Positions 1,553 to 22,176 of a stretch of 39,015 nt of DNA are shown in pieces. Each line of letters starts with the position of its first letter. Positions within the stretch are counted from its first letter, which is position 1. The position numbers and the translations under genes are program-made. Under the pieces are notes generated by a model. The model searched no databases and had not been told where the DNA came from. It saw nothing but the letters and a program-made list of their open reading frames with translations. The DNA comes from a virus (taxonomy: Duplodnaviria; Heunggongvirae; Uroviricota; Caudoviricetes): IMG/VR virus record IMGVR_UViG_2740892269_000012; one strand, written 5' to 3'.

Positions 1553-1741
1553 TCACGAGGACTGAAGTTTCTCGCAATTAAAATTTATCAGTTTTACTTT
1601 CTGCTCTCTGGAAACGCCTGCTTCTTTTTTACCTGAGAGCATTTTTTCGCATTCTGATTTCGTTAGTTTAGATTTTGAATATCTTGTCCAGTTAGTAGGA
1701 GTGCCACCTTCCTTTTCAATAGTGGCGGTAATTTTATACAT
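1553..1741 (-). CDS. ydaC: Small hypothetical protein at the Rac ydaC position, about 62 aa
   Basis: ORF 1553..1813; ATG at 1741 (MYKITATIEKEGG...) has a GGAGGTG SD 5 nt upstream and overlaps the ralR stop; position between ydaQ and ralR as in Rac. Confidence 0.55.
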   Translation of the reverse strand: MYKITATIEKEGGTPTNWTRYSKSKLTKSECEKMLSGKKEAGVSREQKVKLINFNCEKLQSS

Positions 1742-11758: not shown

Positions 11759-11896
11759 ACGTTACTAGATCAAAGAGCATTAGTTCATATGTAAATTGAC
11801 ATTTTTCTGGCACAGGGGAGAGCTAGCGTGGTTGTCCGCTTTGTGCCAATAGCGGACATTGCTGGCTCATGGTATGTTAGTTTAAGGAGGCAGGTT

Positions 11897-12919
11897 ATGC
11901 CCTGTATTTCGCTGTGGTATAATAGTTGCGCAATTGATACAAGGGAGCGTTACATCGTGAAAATTGTTTTCGAGGTTAATGGAAAGAAAGTTCCACTAAA
12001 ATCTTTAAAATACATAAGCAAAAAAGATCAACTCGAAGTAATGAAAAACTGGTTCTTTGAAAACTTTGAAGATCCGGCAAATGCTTGTCCGTATGAAAGT
12101 AGAGAAGGTGGCTATGCTTACATATATGGCGGGCCGTATGATGCGAGCGAAGAACTACAATCCATCTTCGGTCAATATGTTAAATCTGAGTATATTGAGG
12201 AATTAGTAGATGAATTACAAACACAATGTTTTGACTGGTCTGGAAACTCAAATAATATAGATGATTGGTACGATGATGATATCTACGACGCTGTAACGTC
12301 TTCCGGTAATCCGTATTTAAAATTCATTGATAATATCGATAAAATAAAAAAACTTGCAAAAGATAAAACTGAACAACAGCAAAAAAACCACTTGCTTAGT
12401 TTGCTCTACACGAATGTTATTACAGCTTTGGAAACGCTTTATGTTGAGCTATTCATTAATTCTATAGAGAAAGATGATGTCTACATAGCCAATTGTATAG
12501 AAAAAGGTAAGACTGAATTTAAAGTAAGCAAAGATATTGCTGCGTTGCCTTTCAAGGGTGAACCCATCGAGAAAATTAGGGGAGAGCTAATCAGGTCAAT
12601 CAAGGAACACTTGATCAGTGCAAGCTGGCATAGCACTAAAAAGGTAATCGACCGCTATGAAGCTACATTCGATATAAAAGTACAAAAAGACTGTCCGATA
12701 GAAGCTATTGAATTGGCAACCCTCAATCGAAATCACTTAGTGCATCGTGGTGGAAAGGATAAAGAAGGGAACCTCGTAGTGATTACAGACCAGGATCTTG
12801 AAACGCTGATTGAAAATGCATCGAACCTGGCAATTATGCTCTACAACAGTTTAAATGTAGCAACGAATAAAACCACCATTTTGCAACCAGATGACAAACC
12901 GTTCATTCATGAATTTTAA
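11897..12919 (+). CDS. Unknown protein A of an AT-rich two-gene accessory cassette, 340 aa; candidate HEPN-like R-x4-H motif (RNHLVH)
   Basis: ATG at 11897 preceded by AAGGAGG at ideal spacing; strongly AT-rich relative to flanks; Asn/Lys/Ile/Glu/Asp-rich; no family recognised by eye. Confidence 0.7.
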   Translation: MPCISLWYNSCAIDTRERYIVKIVFEVNGKKVPLKSLKYISKKDQLEVMKNWFFENFEDPANACPYESREGGYAYIYGGPYDASEELQSIFGQYVKSEYIEELVDELQTQCFDWSGNSNNIDDWYDDDIYDAVTSSGNPYLKFIDNIDKIKKLAKDKTEQQQKNHLLSLLYTNVITALETLYVELFINSIEKDDVYIANCIEKGKTEFKVSKDIAALPFKGEPIEKIRGELIRSIKEHLISASWHSTKKVIDRYEATFDIKVQKDCPIEAIELATLNRNHLVHRGGKDKEGNLVVITDQDLETLIENASNLAIMLYNSLNVATNKTTILQPDDKPFIHEF

Positions 12920-12934
12920 TAGCGCAGGTCATAC

Positions 12935-13936
12935 ATGGATATTCGCACACGAAAGACAAAATTTTTAGAGTCGTTAGATTCAACTGAAGTGATACGCAAA
13001 GCAGTAAGTCTCGCTATAGATTGCATTATTGATAATCATAATAGTAATGAAGATACCCCCTTAGTTATTACCAGCTATGATGATCTCTGTAGAATCCAGG
13101 TGCTAAATTATGTACAGGAGTTTTGCGAAGCTGCATTCCCTGATATGGATGAATATTACTTTAGTCCTAACATACTTCGCATCAACGGCAAGACTAGTGA
13201 AGAAGCTTGTATTAACTTAATTAAACTCTTAAGAAGTACAAAAGGCATGCTATTCTGGTCCGATGCCCCATCGTGGTTCGCTAGCCTCCCCGACGGATTA
13301 TTCCATGTTGTTAACATTGATCAAAAAATCGTTACTCGCGGCCTTAATAAGAAAAACTCTAAGCCGACAATAATCAATAAAGATTACAGTGTAGATACAC
13401 TACTATCAGAGCTATTTTTGAATGGCGCACACATGGAGCAACCCAACGTACACAACGTTTCTGAGGGAAACATGAAGTTCTATGATGAATGCCATGCTGG
13501 ATTAATCAGACCAATACCCGCTCCAATAGGCGCGTCATACGATGAAGAGATCACAATTAATTCTCCAGATTGGCAAAAGCTCGCGTGTGTAGCTTTACGC
13601 CGCTATCAGTCGAAGGAATGTCATGACGGAATGCAATGGGATACAACCGATCATGGTTGGACTGATGTAATCGCGTATCCATTCGTCGAAGAAATACAAT
13701 CAATGGATAATAGTGGTTATCGACAATGTTTAGTTGGGCTGGTCACAATAAACAATTCAAATGCAAATTCTCCGTACCTATCTACCGTTTGGATACATCC
13801 ATTTTATCGCAGGAGAGGGTTATTAAGTAAGTTATGGCCAAAATTACAAGAGTTATATGGAAGTAACTTCGAAATTGAGCGACCTAATGAAAATATGAAA
13901 GCATTTCTGAAAAGTGCGAAACACGCAGATTACTAA
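12935..13936 (+). CDS. Unknown protein B of the same cassette, 333 aa; C-terminal GNAT-like acetyltransferase motif
   Basis: Starts 15 bp after protein A on the same strand; C-terminal segment CLVGLVTIN...YLSTVWIHPFYRRRGLLSKLW resembles GNAT motif A (beta strand, then R-x-x-G-x-G/A-like). Confidence 0.72.
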   Translation: MDIRTRKTKFLESLDSTEVIRKAVSLAIDCIIDNHNSNEDTPLVITSYDDLCRIQVLNYVQEFCEAAFPDMDEYYFSPNILRINGKTSEEACINLIKLLRSTKGMLFWSDAPSWFASLPDGLFHVVNIDQKIVTRGLNKKNSKPTIINKDYSVDTLLSELFLNGAHMEQPNVHNVSEGNMKFYDECHAGLIRPIPAPIGASYDEEITINSPDWQKLACVALRRYQSKECHDGMQWDTTDHGWTDVIAYPFVEEIQSMDNSGYRQCLVGLVTINNSNANSPYLSTVWIHPFYRRRGLLSKLWPKLQELYGSNFEIERPNENMKAFLKSAKHADY

Positions 13937-16308: not shown

Positions 16309-16598
16309 TGGTGAATTTACGTAAAGCGGCTAAAGGCCAGATGTGCCAGATCAGAATCCCTGGCTACTGCAATCACAATCCCGAAACCTCTGTGCTGGCG
16401 CATTACAGGCTGGCGGGGACGTGCGGAACAGCGACAAAACCACATGATATGCAGGCGGCGATAGCCTGTAGCTCATGCCACGATCTAATCGACGGGCGGG
16501 TAAAAACCAGCGATTACACCAAAGAAGAATTGCGCCTGATGCATGCTGAAGGGGTTTTTCGCACACAAGAAATCTGGAGAAAGAAAGGTCATTTATGA
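16308..16598 (+). CDS. YbcO-like (DUF1364) zinc-binding putative nuclease, 96 aa
   Basis: MVNLRKAAKGQMCQIRIPGYCNHNPETSVLAHYRLAG..CSSCHD resembles DLP12 YbcO as I recall it (Cys pattern and length). Confidence 0.78.
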   Translation: MVNLRKAAKGQMCQIRIPGYCNHNPETSVLAHYRLAGTCGTATKPHDMQAAIACSSCHDLIDGRVKTSDYTKEELRLMHAEGVFRTQEIWRKKGHL

Positions 16599-17137
16599 TT
16601 TACCCAACGAATACAGGAAAAAGCGGAGAACACCTTCGCCTCACCACGCTGGAAAGTGTCTGGATTCAGGGAAAACTACGTATGTGGGGGCGCTGGTCGT
16701 ATATTGGCGGTGGCAGGTCAGGGAATATGTTCAATCAGTTGTTGGCATCCAAAAAACTGACGAAAACAGCCATTAATGAAGCCCTGCGCAGAATGAAAAA
16801 AGCGGGAATAGAGAAAGCTGAGCTGGAAGCGTTTTTGCGAGAGATGATCAACGGCAAGCAAAAGAGCTGGCTGGCGCATTGTACTGATGCAGAGGCGTTA
16901 TGTATTGATCGAGTCATAAGTGAGGTGCTGGCAGAGCATCCAGGATTGATTTGCATTCTCCGGCAACGCTATGAAGGGCGGGGGATGACTAAGCGCAAAA
17001 TGGCTGAATTGCTAAATGATGCACACCCAGAGTGGTGTTTTAGCACATGCGAAAAACGGATTGCTAATTGGTTAGCTGTTGCTGAGTATGCCCTATATAT
17101 TCCCATGCGTGAATCATTTGCTGAGAAAATGGCTTGA
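16595..17137 (+). CDS. Putative late-gene antiterminator Q, 180 aa
   Basis: Position (last nin-region gene, followed by a short untranslated region and strong terminator, then lysis genes); family assigned mainly from context. Confidence 0.55.
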   Translation: MIYPTNTGKSGEHLRLTTLESVWIQGKLRMWGRWSYIGGGRSGNMFNQLLASKKLTKTAINEALRRMKKAGIEKAELEAFLREMINGKQKSWLAHCTDAEALCIDRVISEVLAEHPGLICILRQRYEGRGMTKRKMAELLNDAHPEWCFSTCEKRIANWLAVAEYALYIPMRESFAEKMA

Positions 17138-17214: not shown

Positions 17215-17245
17215 CGTAAAAAAACCGCTTAATGCGGTTTTTTTA
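17215..17245 (+). terminator. Rho-independent terminator, tR'-like, about 90 bp downstream of Q
   Basis: Stem AACCGC / GCGGTT with 5-nt loop (17222-17238) followed by a T7 run. Confidence 0.6.
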
Positions 17246-17562
17246 CGTCAGGAAAGCAGGGGAGAATGCTGCTAGTTGGGCAACTGGTCTTTCTGCTCCA
17301 AATTATAACAGAGACCAGTTATAGTTTCGGTGCTGTGTTTTTTTTACAATATTGTGATAACACATTGCTGGCGGGAGTTTTGATATTTCTTGGCAGGGGC
17401 TGATGATGCGTTATCCTGATGTCGTCAACTCATATAAAATGAGATGAGAGATCATTGCAGGGTGGTTTGTAATTCGCTGTTTAGCGGGACAATATGTTGT
17501 CTGATACAAGACACCCGACGCCTCAGATTACTATAATAAAGACGAAGCATCCTTTGTATTGA

Positions 17563-17592
17563 CCAACCGCCTGTTTAGGCGGTTCTTTTTGG
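17563..17592 (+). terminator. Second putative rho-independent terminator in the Q-to-lysis spacer
   Basis: Stem AACCGCC / GGCGGTT, loop TGTTTA, then CTTTTTGGG. Confidence 0.4.
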
Positions 17593-18122
17593 GCTGGTTT
17601 ATTGTATGCCAAATGATTATTAAAAAGGTTGTGTTAATAACAAGATCCGAAATAATATGCCTGCATATTTTTATCTTGCTTATATTCTGCATATTGTGCA
17701 TAGCAGGCTCATCCCTGCAATCAAAACTGTATGATGAGTATTTTTTGTTTTCCTTTTTTCCAGTCATCTGATGATGACCTGCTTCTTTTTAATCCGGATC
17801 GACATCAGTTTTTTAAGATAATTCCTGCGAGTTATATGCATAAATGCCACAAACTCCGCATTTTATGTGGTTGGGAGTTGCCGGGCGCGCAGTGAGTTTG
17901 CTAAGAAAACTCCTGCATGGTGAATCCCCCTGTGCGGTGGGGTGATACCATTAACCTTTTCTGTCGCCGACAGGTATCACGAACATTTTGTTCACCGGGA
18001 GGCACCCGGCACCATGCACTTCAATAGATTCTCTCCACATTATGGATATTCTTTCAGAATATCCCACGCAGACTTTGTGTAAATGTTAACAAATGTGCGT
18101 TTTATTTGATCTGATTCGCTGT

Positions 18123-18152
18123 TTGAGCGTCCAAAACAACGGTATATATAAT
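18123..18152 (+). promoter_or_regulatory. Putative sigma70 promoter for the TolA-like lipoprotein genes
   Basis: TTGAGC (-35, 18123-18128), 18-bp spacer, TATAAT (-10, 18147-18152), about 30 bp upstream of the ATG at 18182. Confidence 0.4.
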
Positions 18153-18181
18153 CCTTTACTATATGACATATGTGAGGAAAA

Positions 18182-18610
18182 ATGGGTTTTCGTAGCGCAT
18201 CAATTCTTACGTTGATTATTAGTGGGATTATTATCGGGTGCACTGATGCTGTATCGACAAATTATCATGACCGTACATCATATTACTCCGATAAAGCAAT
18301 AGAGACACAGTATGTGAGTTCATCTGAACGTACTTCTGATGTTAGTGAGGATATCCGTCTGTATGCCCATCAAATCAAGAGCGCCATCGAAAAACAGTTC
18401 GGGGATGCGAGTAAGTATTCAGGAAAAGAGTGTACACTGAGAATGCATATGGCCCCGAATGGCCTTCTACTGGAGGTTAAAAGAGAAAGTGGAGACCTCG
18501 ATTTATGTCGTGAAGCGATGAATGCGATAAAGAATGCTGATATACCTGCCCCCCCTTCGCCGGAAGTATATAAAGTATTTCAAAATGGGGTGCTGGATTT
18601 TAAACCCTGA
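18182..18610 (+). CDS. Lipoprotein with C-terminal TolA domain III-like region, 142 aa
   Basis: Signal peptide with lipobox IIGC; C-terminal 85 aa (YAHQIKSAIEKQFGDASKYSGKECTLRMHMAPNGLLLEVKRESGDLDLCREAMNAIKNADIPAPPSPEVYKVFQNGVLDFKP) aligns closely with the E. coli TolA C-terminus as I recall it (...YAGQIKSAIESKFYDASSYAGKTCTLRIKLAPDGMLLDIKPEGGDPALCQAALAAAKLAKIPKPPSQAVYEVFKNAPLDFKP); GAGGAAAA SD. Confidence 0.8.
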   Translation: MGFRSASILTLIISGIIIGCTDAVSTNYHDRTSYYSDKAIETQYVSSSERTSDVSEDIRLYAHQIKSAIEKQFGDASKYSGKECTLRMHMAPNGLLLEVKRESGDLDLCREAMNAIKNADIPAPPSPEVYKVFQNGVLDFKP

Positions 18611-18760
18611 TATTTATTGTTTTGTAATAAACGGTTTCGGCTTAGGTTTGTTCTGACACAGCTACGGCACTGAGCTAAATTTAGCGGATAGTCAGCTCTG
18701 AGCCAGTGGCGGACGTAACAACTACTATTGCTGAGATTTTAATGGATTGAGGAGCAAGAA

Positions 18761-19156
18761 GTGGGATTAAAGAAAATCGTTATGTTGACTTTTTGGGTCG
18801 GTTTTGTTGCGGGATGCACACCTTTACACCCTTCAGATTGCCACAAAACTACTGCTACAGGTAGTTGCAGTTCAGGACGCTGGGATGATCAGGATGAATG
18901 GGGGGCGCAAGCGCGGGGAATCAGAGCTGCAATTAATGCCAAACTTGATGAGCCGCATAACTGGAAAGGGAAAAAATGCAGGTTGCATATGGAATTCTCT
19001 CAGGATGGCACGGCGTTAAAAATATCTACCAGTAACGGTGATAAAGCCTATTGCGAAGCGATAAAGTCCGCAGCTCATAAAGCCAAATTTCCGGCCTTCA
19101 ACAATCCGGAAGTCTACAGAGATTTTCAGAAATCTGGCTTTGACATGCGAGGTTAG
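18761..19156 (+). CDS. Second, more divergent TolA domain III-like lipoprotein, 131 aa (GTG start)
   Basis: Signal peptide with lipobox VAGC; C-terminal ...GKKCRLHMEFSQDGTALKISTSNGDKAYCEAIKSAAHKAKFPAFNNPEVYRDFQKSGFDMRG keeps the TolA-III Cys pair and PxVY/F motif; GAGGAG SD. Confidence 0.72.
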   Translation: MGLKKIVMLTFWVGFVAGCTPLHPSDCHKTTATGSCSSGRWDDQDEWGAQARGIRAAINAKLDEPHNWKGKKCRLHMEFSQDGTALKISTSNGDKAYCEAIKSAAHKAKFPAFNNPEVYRDFQKSGFDMRG

Positions 19157-19281
19157 CTCTTCAATTACTATATCTCATTCATAGCAAACTGACAGATTTG
19201 ATGATGTTCTATATACGAAACCTGTGATGTCAAGTCTGAGCTAATACAAATAAACATAATATCAGAGAAATACATTTTATT

Positions 19282-19305
19282 AGCTCGCTACGGCGAGCTT
19301 TTTAT
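19282..19305 (+). terminator. Rho-independent terminator after the lipoprotein pair
   Basis: Stem AGCTCGC / GCGAGCT with TACG loop followed by TTTTT. Confidence 0.6.
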
Positions 19306-19407: not shown

Positions 19408-19623
19408 ATGAAATCCATGGACAAAATTTCAACAGGCATTGCCTACGGCACCTCCGCAGGCAGTGCTGGCTACTGGTTTTTACAGTTGCTCGATAGAGTA
19501 ACTCCGTCACAGTGGGCTGCAATCGGTGTGCTGGGTAGTCTGGTATTTGGCCTGCTGACGTACCTGACAAACCTTTATTTCAAGATTAAAGAAGATAAGC
19601 GCAAGGCTGCGAGAGGTGAATAA
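19408..19623 (+). CDS. Class II pinholin (phage 21 S21 / EssD-like), 71 aa
   Basis: [71 protein letters not shown]; two TM segments; TAATG overlap with endolysin start. Confidence 0.9.
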
Positions 19624-20581: not shown

Positions 20582-20718
20582 AATCTTAACTACAATATGA
20601 TTCATTTTGATGATTGTTTCATAAGGAACAGTGAAGTAAGATCTAAGAGGAGTTAAATTTTATACAGTATAATCATAATATTGCAGCAAGGTGGTTATAA
20701 TTGAAAGAATATTTAGAT

Positions 20719-22176
20719 ATGAATACATCTCATGTAAGAGTTGTTACTCATATGTGTGGGTTCCTGGTTTGGCTCTATAGTCTTTCAATGTTGCCACCAA
20801 TGGTTGTAGCATTGTTTTATAAAGAAAAAAGCCTGTTCGTTTTCTTTATAACTTTCGTTATATTTTTTTGCATTGGTGGCGGAGCGTGGTATACAACTAA
20901 GAAATCTGGCATTCAATTACGTACCCGTGATGGGTTTATTATAATTGTAATGTTTTGGATTTTGTTTTCTGTTATTAGTGCATTCCCTTTATGGATTGAC
21001 TCAGAACTTAATTTAACGTTCATTGATGCTCTGTTTGAAGGGGTTTCTGGAATAACAACAACAGGAGCAACTGTAATTGATGATGTTAGTTCATTACCTC
21101 GGGCATATTTGTACTATCGGTCACAGTTAAATTTTATAGGTGGTTTAGGAGTTATTGTTCTGGCGGTTGCAGTATTGCCATTATTGGGTATTGGTGGTGC
21201 AAAGCTTTATCAGTCAGAAATGCCGGGGCCATTTAAGGATGACAAACTCACTCCCCGCCTGGCCGATACGTCACGGACACTGTGGATAACTTATTCTTTA
21301 TTAGGTATTGCTTGTATTGTCTGTTATAGACTTGCAGGAATGCCTTTGTTTGATGCTATTTGTCACGGGATTTCCACAGTTTCGCTTGGTGGTTTCTCAA
21401 CTCATAGCGAGAGTATCGGATATTTTAATAACTATTTGGTTGAGCTGGTGGCTGGTTCTTTTTCCCTGCTATCGGCTTTCAACTTCACTCTTTGGTATAT
21501 TGTTATTAGCAGAAAAACGATAAAACCTTTAATCAGAGATATTGAACTTCGTTTCTTTCTGTTAATAGCCTTAGGGGTGATCATTGTTACCTCTTTCCAG
21601 GTCTGGCATATAGGTATGTATGACTTGCATGGAAGTTTTATTCATTCGTTTTTTCTTGCCAGCTCCATGCTCACTGATAATGGTTTAGCTACGCAGGATT
21701 ATGCAAACTGGCCCACGCACACGATAGTGTTTTTGCTGTTGTCAAGTTTCTTTGGGGGATGTATAGGTTCAACCTGTGGTGGAATTAAGTCACTTCGATT
21801 TCTTATACTTTTCAAACAAAGCAAACACGAGATAAATCAGCTTTCTCATCCCAGAGCGTTGTTGAGTGTAAATGTAGGAGGGAAGATAGTTACAGATCGT
21901 GTAATGAGGTCTGTATGGAGTTTCTTTTTTCTTTATACTCTCTTCACGGTGTTTTTTATACTGGTGTTAAATGGTATGGGATATGATTTTCTTACATCAT
22001 TTGCAACAGTGGCTGCATGTATTAATAATATGGGATTAGGTTTTGGGGCTACTGCATCGTCATTCGGAGTGCTTAATGACATTGCAAAATATTTAATGTG
22101 CATAGCTATGATTCTTGGTCGCCTTGAAATTTATCCTGTTATTATATTGTTTTCAGGTTTTTTTTGGCGCTCCTAA
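20719..22176 (+). CDS. trkG: TrkG potassium uptake transporter (TrkH paralogue), 485 aa
   Basis: ATG at 20719 (MNTSHVRVVTHMCGFLVWLYSLSMLPP...) gives 485 aa as in K-12 TrkG; polytopic membrane protein; AT-rich gene. Confidence 0.9.
   Translation: MNTSHVRVVTHMCGFLVWLYSLSMLPPMVVALFYKEKSLFVFFITFVIFFCIGGGAWYTTKKSGIQLRTRDGFIIIVMFWILFSVISAFPLWIDSELNLTFIDALFEGVSGITTTGATVIDDVSSLPRAYLYYRSQLNFIGGLGVIVLAVAVLPLLGIGGAKLYQSEMPGPFKDDKLTPRLADTSRTLWITYSLLGIACIVCYRLAGMPLFDAICHGISTVSLGGFSTHSESIGYFNNYLVELVAGSFSLLSAFNFTLWYIVISRKTIKPLIRDIELRFFLLIALGVIIVTSFQVWHIGMYDLHGSFIHSFFLASSMLTDNGLATQDYANWPTHTIVFLLLSSFFGGCIGSTCGGIKSLRFLILFKQSKHEINQLSHPRALLSVNVGGKIVTDRVMRSVWSFFFLYTLFTVFFILVLNGMGYDFLTSFATVAACINNMGLGFGATASSFGVLNDIAKYLMCIAMILGRLEIYPVIILFSGFFWRS

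Follow-up and report, generated by a model that had tools for sequence, protein, structure and literature searches.

Two TolA-domain-III lipoprotein genes in the Q-to-lysis slot of a Rac-type Escherichia coli prophage: possible decoys for Tol-dependent bacteriocins and filamentous phages

A two-gene cassette between the late antiterminator and the lysis genes

The window, a 39,015-nucleotide stretch of DNA holding a Rac-type Escherichia coli prophage, carries two small lipoprotein genes, ORF1 and ORF2, between the late-gene activator and the lysis genes (Table 1). It is colinear with strain ECCHD184 over about 15.3-36.6 kb only, and outside that part its genes were annotated from its own sequence. 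The product of the gene bounding the slot upstream matches phrog_753, 'anti-termination protein Q-like' (E = 2e-79). The P21-type holin gene S on the downstream side is followed by genes for a lysozyme (Pfam Phage_lysozyme; RefSeq rrrD) and for Rz/Rz1 (Pfam Phage_lysis), and the phage encodes a complete spanin pair. The original prediction had described the position as a Q-to-lysis moron slot equivalent to that of the Stx genes, and the flanking genes bear this out, as do other ORF1 alleles, which occupy the exact stxAB position in Stx-phage-type backbones. In these backbones the alleles lie between Q and the holin, in the order Q, DNA methylase, tRNA-Ile, tRNA-Arg, tolA-like gene, nanS-p esterase and holin. 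The tRNAs expected upstream of cargo in the stx slot are present upstream of these other alleles, and none were found in the window. The GC content of the cassette is lower (0.40-0.46).

Table 1. Features in and around the cassette, in coordinates of the window
Feature	Position	Strand	Basis or remark
Q-like late antiterminator gene	16595..17137	+	Upstream slot boundary; Pfam DUF1133 (E = 2.5e-107) and Phage_antitermQ
STnc100-family RNA element	17885..18071	+	Directly upstream of the cassette; Rfam RF02076, 86.6 bits (gathering score 47), E = 2e-17
Sigma70 promoter-like site, TTGAGC-18-TATAAT	18123..18152	+	10/12 consensus match; 30 nt upstream of the ORF1 start
ORF1, TolA-domain-III lipoprotein, 142 aa	18182..18610	+	Intact ORF; Pfam, phmmer, AlphaFold, dN/dS
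ORF1 lipoprotein signal peptide	18182..18241	+	Lipobox IIGC; Cys20 codon 18239-18241; Thr at +2
ORF1 TolAIII domain, residues 53-142	18338..18607	+	pLDDT >90; Foldseek to 2X9A chain B
C7 homopolymer within ORF1	18549..18555	+	Site of frameshifted database alleles
ORF2 Shine-Dalgarno sequence GAGGAG	18749..18754	+	6 nt before the GTG start
ORF2, divergent TolA-domain-III lipoprotein, 131 aa, GTG start	18761..19156	+	Pfam, phmmer, AlphaFold, dN/dS
ORF2 lipoprotein signal peptide	18761..18817	+	Lipobox VAGC; Cys19 codon 18815-18817; Thr at +2; family-conserved
ORF2 linker	18818..18895	+	Family-invariant Cys27 and Cys36; start of GRWDDQDEWG; alignment
ORF2 TolAIII domain, residues 46-131	18896..19153	+	pLDDT 87-97; Foldseek to 3QDP
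Intrinsic terminator-like hairpin and T-run	19282..19304	+	7 bp, 5 GC pairs; hairpin 19282-19299; closes the cassette
P21-type holin gene S	19408..19623	+	Downstream slot boundary; Pfam Phage_holin_2_1 (E = 4.5e-35); RefSeq essD

The STnc100 element accompanies the cassette in 79 of 80 IMG/VR copies. Of the two signals that had led to the pair being called an independently expressed moron, the terminator is real as a structure, folding with a minimum free energy of -16.4 kcal/mol (z = -3.6). The promoter is a match to the consensus and no more: the region holds 11 promoter-like matches against 6.5±2.3 in shuffled sequences, about 2 standard deviations above, and the same kind of scan finds no comparable match at an ORF1 allele in an Stx-type backbone. 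Expression in the lysogen would start from the site at 18123, as predicted from its sequence. Purely late expression from pR' is nevertheless possible, since the promoter is known as a consensus match only and has no equivalent at the Stx-backbone allele, and such expression would fit lysis-associated roles better than protection of the lysogen. No terminator lies in the spacer between ORF1 and ORF2, and its folding is not significant (z = -0.3). The two genes are probably co-transcribed prophage cargo.

Copies of TolA domain III with a predicted lipid anchor

Both open reading frames are present and intact where they had been placed, and both are genuine genes under purifying selection. Each begins with the lipoprotein signal claimed for it, conserved in its respective family, in which a lipobox of the form [LVI][ASTVI][GAS]C follows a positively charged n-region and a hydrophobic h-region. 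ORF1 starts with MGFRSASILTLIISGIIIGC and continues TD, with R4 in the n-region. Alleles of 65-99% identity all share L9, L11, I12, G19 and C20, the lipobox Gly-Cys being retained even though the signal peptide has otherwise diverged. ORF2 starts with MGLKKIVMLTFWVGFVAGC and continues TP, with K4 and K5 in the n-region, and homologues on plasmids and chromosomes of five genera retain its GAGGAG and GTG start. Lipoprotein signals are found in 60 of the 76 complete short TolAIII proteins that serve as representatives at 50% identity, and in none of these 60 is the +2 residue Asp; a few others carry ordinary secretion signals. The products of both genes are thus predicted to carry lipid on the lipobox cysteine and, as neither has Asp at +2, are likely to be sorted to the outer membrane.

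The remainder of each protein is a linker and one domain. The alignment and structure prediction suggested at the outset converge on TolAIII for both proteins by Pfam, phmmer and Foldseek alike. Pfam TolA_C (PF06519; gathering score 25 bits) covers residues 49-140 of ORF1 (82.6 bits, E = 2.4e-23) and residues 44-125 of ORF2 (54.6 bits, E = 1.3e-14), and against the TolAIII chains of the PDB (1S62, 3QDP, 1TOL, 2X9A) phmmer returns E-values of about 1e-27 and 5e-9, respectively. The AlphaFold models, with domain pLDDT of at least 87 in every 10-residue block and mostly above 90, superpose on solved TolAIII at 0.6-1.0 Å and share its alpha/beta architecture, in which helices pack against a sheet of three strands (compare 1TOL, 3QDP and 2X9A). 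The target-normalised TM score is 0.93 in both cases, at an rmsd of 0.6 Å and 60% identity for ORF1 against 2X9A chain B and 1.0 Å for ORF2 against 3QDP. In sequence, ORF1 shares 60.5% identity with residues 336-421 of E. coli TolA (86 aa), in line with the roughly 60% first estimated, whereas ORF2, as had been noted, is more divergent (33.8% over 77 aa). Two features had been said to be kept in both. The cysteine pair of TolA, C363/C388, is indeed invariant in both families (C84/C109 in ORF1, C73/C98 in ORF2), but the PxVYxxF...LDFKP end is retained in ORF1 only, ORF2 ending in FDMRG.

Neither protein is a full-length TolA. The N-terminal 45-52 residues consist of the signal peptide and a predicted disordered linker, with no transmembrane anchor; domain I, which couples TolA to TolQ-TolR, and the Ala/Lys/Glu-rich helical domain II are both absent. 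The match to a full-length TolA profile is restricted to positions 293-386 of 387, and the scores against the TolA equivalog model NF007065 (107.8 bits for ORF1, 53.7 for ORF2) lie below its cut-off of 213. ORF1 does pass the cut-off of TIGR02794 (75.6 against 59.45), on the C-terminal quarter of that model only.

ORF1 has evolved under constraint, with a dN/dS of 0.36 overall and 0.25 in the domain (dS 0.44-0.59). Its homopolymer is C7 in 78 of 79 IMG/VR copies and C8 in one, which leaves the gene intact in 78 of 79; the scan contains only 99%-identical Rac-type copies and is informative on integrity counts, not on diversity. Among the 50%-identity representatives from a profile search, no full-length TolA exceeds 57% identity to ORF1, and its capture is therefore not recent. 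ORF2 is constrained more tightly still (dN/dS 0.06-0.15). Its linker, modelled with a small hairpin at pLDDT 56-62, has no counterpart in TolA and carries a motif, C27...C36...GRWDDQDEWG (the last part being residues 39-48, extending to 18904), which is kept from Serratia to E. coli.

To get into a cell, colicins and filamentous phages need to take hold of the periplasmic domain of TolA. Strand β3 of TolAIII is bound by g3p, colicin N and TolB, and the backbone hydrogen bonds of D418 and K420 within it are required for binding of g3p-N1 and colicin N (by SPR) and, via TolB, for killing by colicin E9 (PMC4339652). The colicin A site lies on β2 (375-LLDIKP-380; PMC3365938). Affinities are about 1 µM for g3p and colicin N and 40-200 µM for TolB (PMC4339652, PMC7391070), and the TolAIII-TolB complex resembles that of TonB with the TonB box (PMC7391070). 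In the ORF1 family, β3 (LDFKP; L417-D418-F419-K420-P421 of TolA) is unchanged, K396 is kept (PMC3365938), and β2 reads LL(E/Q)VKR, with LLEVKR in ORF1 itself. By a hand count, ORF1-TolA identity is about 66% at the known interfaces and about 57% over the rest, which is no clear enrichment. ORF2 lacks the colicin A contacts (K368E; β2 = ALKIST), while its domain core and C-terminal strand are still TolA-like. Its family is older, has spread horizontally and is very conserved, but the surfaces have changed, so ORF2 may have a different ligand range.

Distribution and annotation of the family

Of 5426 complete E. coli genomes, 771 contain the pair at 99% identity or more, and short TolAIII proteins, mostly with a predicted lipid anchor, occur on prophages, on about 1300 plasmids and in chromosomal islets. 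Homologues of ORF2 lie in the leading region of pO157 and on IncI1 plasmids, in the latter adjoining the relaxase gene; further homologues have a TrbB/thioredoxin-like gene as their neighbour on conjugative plasmids of Klebsiella, or adjoin mbeD. On cloacin-DF13-type ColRNAI plasmids of K. pneumoniae, the gene for a TolA_C lipoprotein shares its operon with that for a secreted TonB C-terminal domain (TonB_C) protein, and another TolA_C lipoprotein is found on an E. hormaechei plasmid encoding a pore-forming colicin, unrelated to the cloacin type. In many genera ORF2 homologues also stand alone on the chromosome and are strongly constrained by purifying selection; they are fixed in some Enterobacter lineages and adjoin GmrSD/HEPN genes in Serratia, and their neighbours change from each examined genus to the next. 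Among sequenced phage isolates the fold is all but missing: tblastn finds one phage record only, and a search of viral structures in BFVD gives no match at E ≤ 0.001.

Over nearly their full length, both proteins belong to phrog_5772 (E = 1e-62 and 1e-65), an automatic grouping labelled 'unknown function' whose profile spans residues 6-142 of ORF1, almost the whole protein with most of its signal peptide. ORF2 corresponds to WP_001348108.1, named by NCBI 'cell envelope integrity TolA C-terminal domain-containing protein'. A full-text literature search found no paper characterising these proteins or giving phrog_5772 or the NCBI-named family a role. PGAP labels 18350-18610 as 'tolA, incomplete, missing N-terminus', a pseudogene, the tolA name arising because the TIGR02794 cut-off is passed on the C-terminal quarter of the model; the full ORF1 is annotated in other RefSeq genomes and in the record of phage mEp460_ev081. 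For ORF2, RefSeq places the start later than the GTG at 18761, at the cost of the n-region of the signal peptide. Both annotations look wrong and, independently of function, need correction.

Candidate functions and comparison with known systems

We give roughly even chances to a role of both proteins as uncoupled periplasmic decoys that intercept Tol-dependent bacteriocins and phage g3p. Once exported and lipid-modified at the lipobox cysteine, the products would, lacking Asp at +2, most likely reside in the inner leaflet of the outer membrane, where a disordered linker of about 25-33 residues would present the folded TolAIII copy in the periplasm. Because domains I and II are missing, the copy would not be coupled to the TolQ-TolR motor, and a ligand caught by its β-strand-augmentation surface would meet no force and no import. 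Such a decoy would lie just beneath the outer membrane, where the disordered translocation domains of group A (Tol-dependent) bacteriocins and the g3p N1 domain of filamentous phages first emerge, and capture there would render the lysogen tolerant to both. ORF1 would serve as a close mimic of enterobacterial TolA surfaces, and ORF2, with its altered ones, would perhaps take other ligands.

The selection on both genes, their intact alleles and wide carriage, and lipoprotein signals without Asp at +2 throughout the class are consistent with such decoys. Circumstantial support comes from ORF1, which keeps β3 identical and β2 nearly so, and from the recurrence of short TolAIII lipoproteins on two plasmids for colicin-like bacteriocins that are unrelated to each other; on one of these plasmids the lipoprotein is paired with the secreted TonB_C protein. 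Escherichia coli with TolAIII in its periplasm is reportedly tolerant to colicins, resistant to Ff phages and leaky. The affinities given above suggest that a decoy could trap invaders with little interference with Tol-Pal. Against the decoy stand the lack of clear enrichment of ORF1-TolA identity at the interfaces, the altered colicin A site of ORF2 and its conserved, Cys-rich acidic linker, which the model leaves unexplained. The promoter-like site, a consensus match lacking at the Stx-backbone allele, also weighs against it, as expression could be purely late. PADLOC returns no match and has no model for these proteins, and the fixation of ORF2 in some Enterobacter chromosomes could reflect a physiological role in the envelope. 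More tentatively, and with some doubt, the TolAIII copies of lambdoid prophages, pO157, IncI1 and Klebsiella conjugative plasmids, colicin-like bacteriocin plasmids and chromosomal islets may, if they act as decoys, form an unrecognised, widespread class of broad-spectrum 'import immunity' directed at colicin-like bacteriocins and pilus-dependent filamentous phages, with the pair in the window as its prophage representative.

We consider it unlikely that the proteins act on the host envelope itself, the TolAIII copies binding the N-terminus of TolB, or another TolA partner, in competition with host TolA and leaving the outer membrane destabilised, leaky and hypervesiculating. Transcribed late from pR', they would then aid lysis or the release of particles or cargo and, on bacteriocin plasmids, the release of bacteriocin. 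The genes lie downstream of Q and directly upstream of holin, lysozyme and Rz, where a Q-modified polymerase would read through both of them and the terminator at 19282, and the Stx-backbone ORF1 allele is without a promoter-like site of its own; short TolAIII genes also share plasmids with bacteriocin and lysis genes. Overproduction of TolAIII is said to cause leakage of periplasmic proteins. That the TolB-binding strand β3 of ORF1 is identical to that of TolA fits as well, but the affinity of TolB for TolAIII is weak (PMC7391070), the phage already has its spanins, and the secreted TonB_C partner has no obvious role in release. Co-induction with bacteriocin release is not indicated, because there is no LexA box in the window or near the TolA-like genes: the sole box on the cloacin plasmid is that of the cloacin promoter, and the TolA/TonB-like operon is transcribed divergently from it at a distance of over 260 nt. 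Constitutive envelope damage would also be costly, and so sits poorly with strongly selected, stand-alone chromosomal homologues of ORF2 in many genera.

It is improbable, too, that the TolA/TonB-type fold serves here, mainly in ORF2, as a generic β-strand-augmentation module against another periplasmic target, be it the TonB box of an outer-membrane receptor, to keep out tailed phages or group B colicins much as Cor or Llp would, or a conjugative-transfer component, for entry exclusion. The low identity of ORF2 to TolAIII, its different side chains on β2 and β3, and a linker motif absent from TolA agree with such a module, as do the neighbouring relaxase, pO157 leading region, TrbB/thioredoxin-like gene and mbeD, and the likeness between TolAIII-TolB and TonB-TonB-box complexes (PMC7391070). 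No specific partner emerges from the neighbourhoods, however, in view of their variable flanks; Pfam TonB_C and TonB_2 score far below TolA_C on ORF2 or do not match; and its core and C-terminal strand are TolA-like. Finally, the PGAP label and the frameshifted alleles in the protein database would suit a decaying, captured tolA fragment with a fortuitous lipobox, which is very improbable for an ORF1 that has a start codon and signal peptide, an invariant lipobox Gly-Cys, constrained substitution rates, an unbroken frame in nearly every copy, a phrog profile over almost its whole length and full annotation elsewhere.

If the decoy proposal is true, about one in seven complete E. coli genomes would carry prophage-borne tolerance to Tol-dependent colicins and filamentous phages, and related determinants would travel on about 1300 sequenced plasmids, among them pO157, IncI1 plasmids and the small plasmids of cloacin type that epidemic clones of K. 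pneumoniae harbour. Genome-based prediction of colicin and klebicin sensitivity would change, with relevance to therapeutics based on bacteriocins or plasmid-dependent phages, and mimicry of the host co-receptor domain would join the exclusion strategies that block, modify or remove a receptor.

Several known systems invite comparison. The pair shares with stxAB and with the morons lambda bor/lom, DLP12 nmpC and Rac trkG a position between Q/tR' and lysis, and its cassette has a promoter-like site and a terminator on its flanks and lower GC, but the functions of the cargo are unrelated. Its proteins belong to phrog_5772 and the NCBI family, but these are automatic groupings. With domain III of host TolA they have in common the fold, the disulfide pair and, in ORF1, an identical β3 and nearly identical colicin A site on β2; TolA, however, is an inner-membrane protein with domains I and II, whereas ORF1 and ORF2 are prophage-encoded, lack both domains and are predicted to carry an N-terminal lipid, probably in the outer membrane. 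The engineered periplasmic TolAIII is likewise an isolated domain in the periplasm, and the colicin tolerance, Ff resistance and leakiness reported for it are the phenotype predicted for ORF1 and ORF2, which differ in being natural, 40-66% diverged from TolA, carried on mobile elements and, by prediction, lipid-tethered. Cor of phi80, N15 and mEp phages and Llp of T5 are, similarly, small phage lipoproteins encoded by cargo genes that block the entry of competitors from the periplasmic side of the outer membrane. They have no sequence or fold relationship to ORF1 or ORF2, and they bind and inactivate FhuA rather than copying a host protein, whereas ORF1 and ORF2 reproduce a domain of a host co-receptor, and their ligand would be the invader, not the receptor. 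In infected cells, g3p is said to occupy TolA, resulting in phage exclusion and colicin tolerance. The decoy would employ this same g3p-N1/TolAIII interaction in mirror image: there the ligand saturates the receptor, and here a copy of the receptor would saturate the ligand.

Domain, signals and prophage setting of ORF1 and ORF2

ORF1 begins with MGFRSASILTLIISGIIIGC followed by TD and ORF2 with MGLKKIVMLTFWVGFVAGC followed by TP; judged by sequence, both N-termini are classic lipoprotein signals, and Thr occupies the +2 position in each, as the original prediction had it. We infer the lipidation, localisation, expression and phenotype of both products. The Pfam TolA_C profile (PF06519) covers ORF1 residues 49-140 (E 2.4e-23) and ORF2 residues 44-125 (E 1.3e-14), and PDB sequence searches return TolA domain III (TolAIII) entries alone (E ~1e-27 for ORF1, 5e-9 for ORF2). 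The predicted similarity to TolAIII, about 60% in ORF1 and more divergent in ORF2, agrees with the measured identities to E. coli TolA 336-421 (60.5% and 33.8%), and ORF1 shares 28% identity with ORF2. AlphaFold models of both show a confident C-terminal domain preceded by 45-52 disordered residues, with the domains superposing on solved TolAIII structures (ORF1 on 2X9A chain B, target-normalised TM 0.93, rmsd 0.6 Å; ORF2 on 3QDP, target-normalised TM 0.93, rmsd 1.0 Å).

The window represents a lambdoid E. coli prophage of the Rac type. Many complete genomes, such as that of strain ECCHD184, match the 1.5 kb around the pair at 100% identity, and in ECCHD184 the annotated order runs from recET, kilR and sieB through DUF1367, DUF1364 and DUF1133 to the two TolA-like genes, and then to essD, rrrD, a lysis protein and trkG. 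Colinearity with ECCHD184 is not kept throughout, and the window's own genes 5′ of the pair comprise replication functions and a two-gene cargo. This cargo, located between the replication module (DUF1376, DnaC-like, DUF1627, DUF977) and a nin-like region, may encode a toxin or defence pair not yet characterised; PADLOC matches neither of its ORFs, and ECCHD184 carries other cargo (BCCT and MFS transporters) at the equivalent position. RalA is present as expected for Rac. The Trk potassium transporter gene trkG, of very low GC, is the classic Rac cargo gene and a second moron in this late region.

The gap of ~1 kb between the Q-like gene and ORF1 is non-coding; several hairpins in it resemble terminators, and Rfam gives a strong match to STnc100. 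The match, immediately 5′ of the ORF1 promoter-like site, accompanies the cassette in 79/80 IMG/VR copies and may be part of the late leader; its 3′ half lies inside a segment common to the window and phage mEp460_ev081, and the 3′ hairpin of the window's copy is without a T-run. The pair had been credited with its own promoter and terminator. The terminator hairpin holds up, folding far better than shuffles (z -3.6), and the scan also recovers the promoter-like site, as a consensus match only, in a region rich in matches of this kind (11 observed, 6.5±2.3 expected). Co-transcription of ORF1 and ORF2 is likely, because no terminator or significant structure was found in the 150-nt spacer between them.

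Features of the ORF1/ORF2 region and of related loci (window positions unless a locus is named)
Feature	Position	Strand	Details
RalA antitoxin sRNA, RalR/RalA type I system	1557-1735	+	Rfam RF02694, 225 bits
Two-gene cargo	11828-13936	+	363-aa ORF, weak HEPN_RES_NTD1 match; 333-aa ORF, weak GNAT match
Q-like antiterminator	upstream of ORF1		DUF1133, phrog_753
A-run, hairpin, T-run	17218-17246		just 3′ of Q-like gene; AAAAAAACCGCTTAATGCGGTTTTTTT; candidate pR'/tR' element
Promoter-like site, then terminator	17508-17537, 17565-17584		candidate pR'/tR' elements (17508-17584)
STnc100 match	17885-18071	+	Rfam RF02076; 86.6 bits, gathering score 47
Promoter-like site	18123-18152		TTGAGC-18-TATAAT; consensus scan
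ORF1	18182-18610		142 aa
C7 homopolymer	18549-18555		within ORF1
ORF2	18761-19156		131 aa, GTG start
ORF2 linker	18818-18904		residues 20-48
Terminator hairpin	19282-19299 plus T-run		same scan as promoter-like site
P21-type holin, lysozyme, Rz	downstream of ORF2
trkG	20701-22176	+	directly 3′ of Rz/Rz1; GC 0.34-0.39
ORF2 homologue and its neighbourhood, Serratia marcescens	locus L010, 6957-8736
TolA_C/TonB_C operon, K. pneumoniae plasmid	locus L017, 1512-2245		NZ_CP031718.1; also in locus L018
TolA_C lipoprotein, E. hormaechei plasmid	locus L100, 4406-4828		NZ_CP053647.1; 140 aa; …FLTAC followed by T…; adjoins mbeD

Relatives on chromosomes, on plasmids and in Stx-phage-type backbones

Homologues of ORF2 with 65-89% identity are single genes in unrelated chromosomal neighbourhoods of genera including Citrobacter, Enterobacter, Klebsiella, Raoultella, Leclercia, Pantoea, Serratia and Rouxiella. 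The Serratia marcescens homologue lies immediately 5′ of GmrSD-type and HEPN (RiboL-PSP/MAE_28990) genes, a defence-island-like neighbourhood. Searching 1.84 billion representative proteins with a profile yielded 573 matches, the best 149 of which include 76 complete proteins of 105-170 aa; a lipoprotein signal is present in 60 of the 76, Asp at +2 in none, and a few have a type-I signal peptide instead. Any names given in the sources are automatic and generic, for instance 'cell envelope integrity protein TolA'.

With tblastn, relatives were found on 1297 plasmids. E. coli or Shigella plasmids account for ~600, among them pO157, where the psiB-psiA-hok leading region and toxB flank the TolA-like gene, and an IncI1 plasmid in which this gene directly follows that for the relaxase. 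Another ~300 are large Klebsiella conjugative plasmids, of which one was examined; there, a thioredoxin/TrbB-like gene adjoins that for a lipoprotein version of 144 aa. Small K. pneumoniae ColRNAI plasmids of 10,060 and 11,970 bp (~380) encode a cloacin-DF13-like bacteriocin with its immunity and lysis proteins, and a 123-aa TolA_C lipoprotein (…LLLTAC followed by K…, C-terminus NAPLDFRP) in an operon with a 121-aa TonB_C protein that has an ordinary signal peptide. This operon is divergent from the bacteriocin-immunity-lysis genes, and plasmids of this cloacin-DF13 type occur in hundreds of K. pneumoniae records. A 6.4-kb E. hormaechei plasmid with a pore-forming colicin, unrelated to the cloacin plasmids, is a second, independent association of a bacteriocin plasmid with a short TolAIII gene.

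Other ORF1 alleles (P0028 and its relatives) are carried by ~136 more of the complete E. coli genomes. In the three P0028 loci examined, and in a bovine O22:H8 strain, the allele sits in a Stx-phage-type backbone, in the order Q, (DNA methylase), tRNA-Ile/Met(CAU), tRNA-Arg, tolA-like gene, nanS-p-type SASA esterase, DUF1378, DUF826 and holin. Here, the tolA-like gene stands alone, with ORF2 absent, and is at the stxAB position, so that the 'Stx-equivalent slot' of the original prediction is literally correct for P0028-type alleles.

Binding surfaces, the decoy proposal and its alternatives

TolAIII is the periplasmic hub, where TolB, filamentous-phage g3p-N1 and colicin N bind strand beta3 by beta-strand augmentation and colicin A binds the opposite edge, beta2 (375-LLDIKP-380, with K368 and K396) (PMC4339652, PMC3365938, PMC7391070). 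Mapped to these positions, the ORF1 family has beta3 LDFKP unchanged and beta2 as LL(E/Q)VKR, with K396 and most of helix alpha2 kept. The ORF2 family carries K368E and K396H/Q, with beta2 as ALKIST in the window allele and ALNIST in most of the family; beta3, where the original prediction had the DFKP end in both ORFs, is FDMRG here. TolA domains I and II are absent from both ORFs, and TolQR therefore cannot energise either product.

Our preferred proposal, to which we give an even chance, is that ORF1 and ORF2 work as decoys. A TolAIII copy lipid-anchored directly under the outer membrane would encounter arriving translocation domains ahead of host TolA, and would hold those it captured unproductively. 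Since TolAIII binds invaders at ~1 uM and TolB at 40-200 uM, protection with little harm to Tol-Pal is plausible. Periplasmic TolAIII production is said to have given exactly this tolerance, together with leakiness, in the hands of Levengood-Freyermuth in 1993 and Bouveret in 2002. The best circumstantial evidence linking the class to the import of bacteriocins or phages is its recurrence on bacteriocin plasmids, once with a secreted TonB C-terminal domain.

The pair could alternatively destabilise the outer membrane by titrating TolB, aiding release at lysis or bacteriocin export. Adjacency to the lysis cassette fits this, as do the leakiness known from TolAIII overproduction and the Stx-type ORF1 allele, for which the scan used on the window found no promoter-like site. 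However, the phage already has spanins, a search for a LexA box near the TolA-like genes found none, and in many genera ORF2 stands by itself as a conserved chromosomal gene; we consider such a role unlikely. A ligand other than the decoy targets, above all for ORF2, strikes us as distinctly improbable, although the ORF2 surface is changed and its linker has two additional cysteines (C27, C36) and an acidic, Trp-containing motif, GRWDDQDEWG, that are kept from Serratia to E. coli and have no counterpart in TolA or ORF1. The motif shows rare single substitutions only (e.g. G-H-W, R-W-E); the linker is loosely similar in composition to colicin TolB boxes, but the DGSGW consensus is unmatched.

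Gene integrity and relation to known systems

A pseudogene, as RefSeq (PGAP, NZ_CP033250.1) annotates ORF1 (tolA 'missing N-terminus', window 18350-18610), is rejected on selection and integrity data. The 142-aa frame is intact in 78/79 IMG/VR copies, alleles just 65-74% identical keep the lipobox Gly-Cys and hydrophobic core in a changed signal peptide sequence (MYCRAVPVLVLILASLTTGC vs MGFRSASILTLIISGIIIGC), and comparison of the window allele with one that is 66% identical to it gives an overall dN/dS of 0.36, and 0.25 for the domain. The same annotation starts ORF2 at a downstream internal ATG (window 18782-19156), removing the charged n-region of the signal peptide. The start GAGGAG-N6-GTG/ATG is kept in homologues of five genera, plasmid-borne as well as chromosomal, among which the PGAP-chosen ATG is not conserved, and ORF2 dN/dS against such homologues is 0.06-0.15. 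Both calls look wrong, because conservation and dN/dS argue against them. In each of 80 IMG/VR copies, ORF1, ORF2 and the holin are found together. Some protein database alleles of ORF1 (e.g. P0010, P0015; 157-158 aa) are frameshifted exactly at C7; C8 occurs in merely 1/79 IMG/VR copies, and frequent phase variation is therefore unlikely.

We found no functional study of these proteins in the literature, no PADLOC model for them and no structural relative in BFVD. As genes they have catalogue entries already, under an NCBI product name and in phrog_5772 ('unknown function'), a single phage protein family that takes in both ORFs nearly full-length; the novelty would lie in the function and in recognising the class. 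Cargo lipoproteins acting to exclude competitors are a known kind, to which the pair may belong, here by copying a host co-receptor domain.
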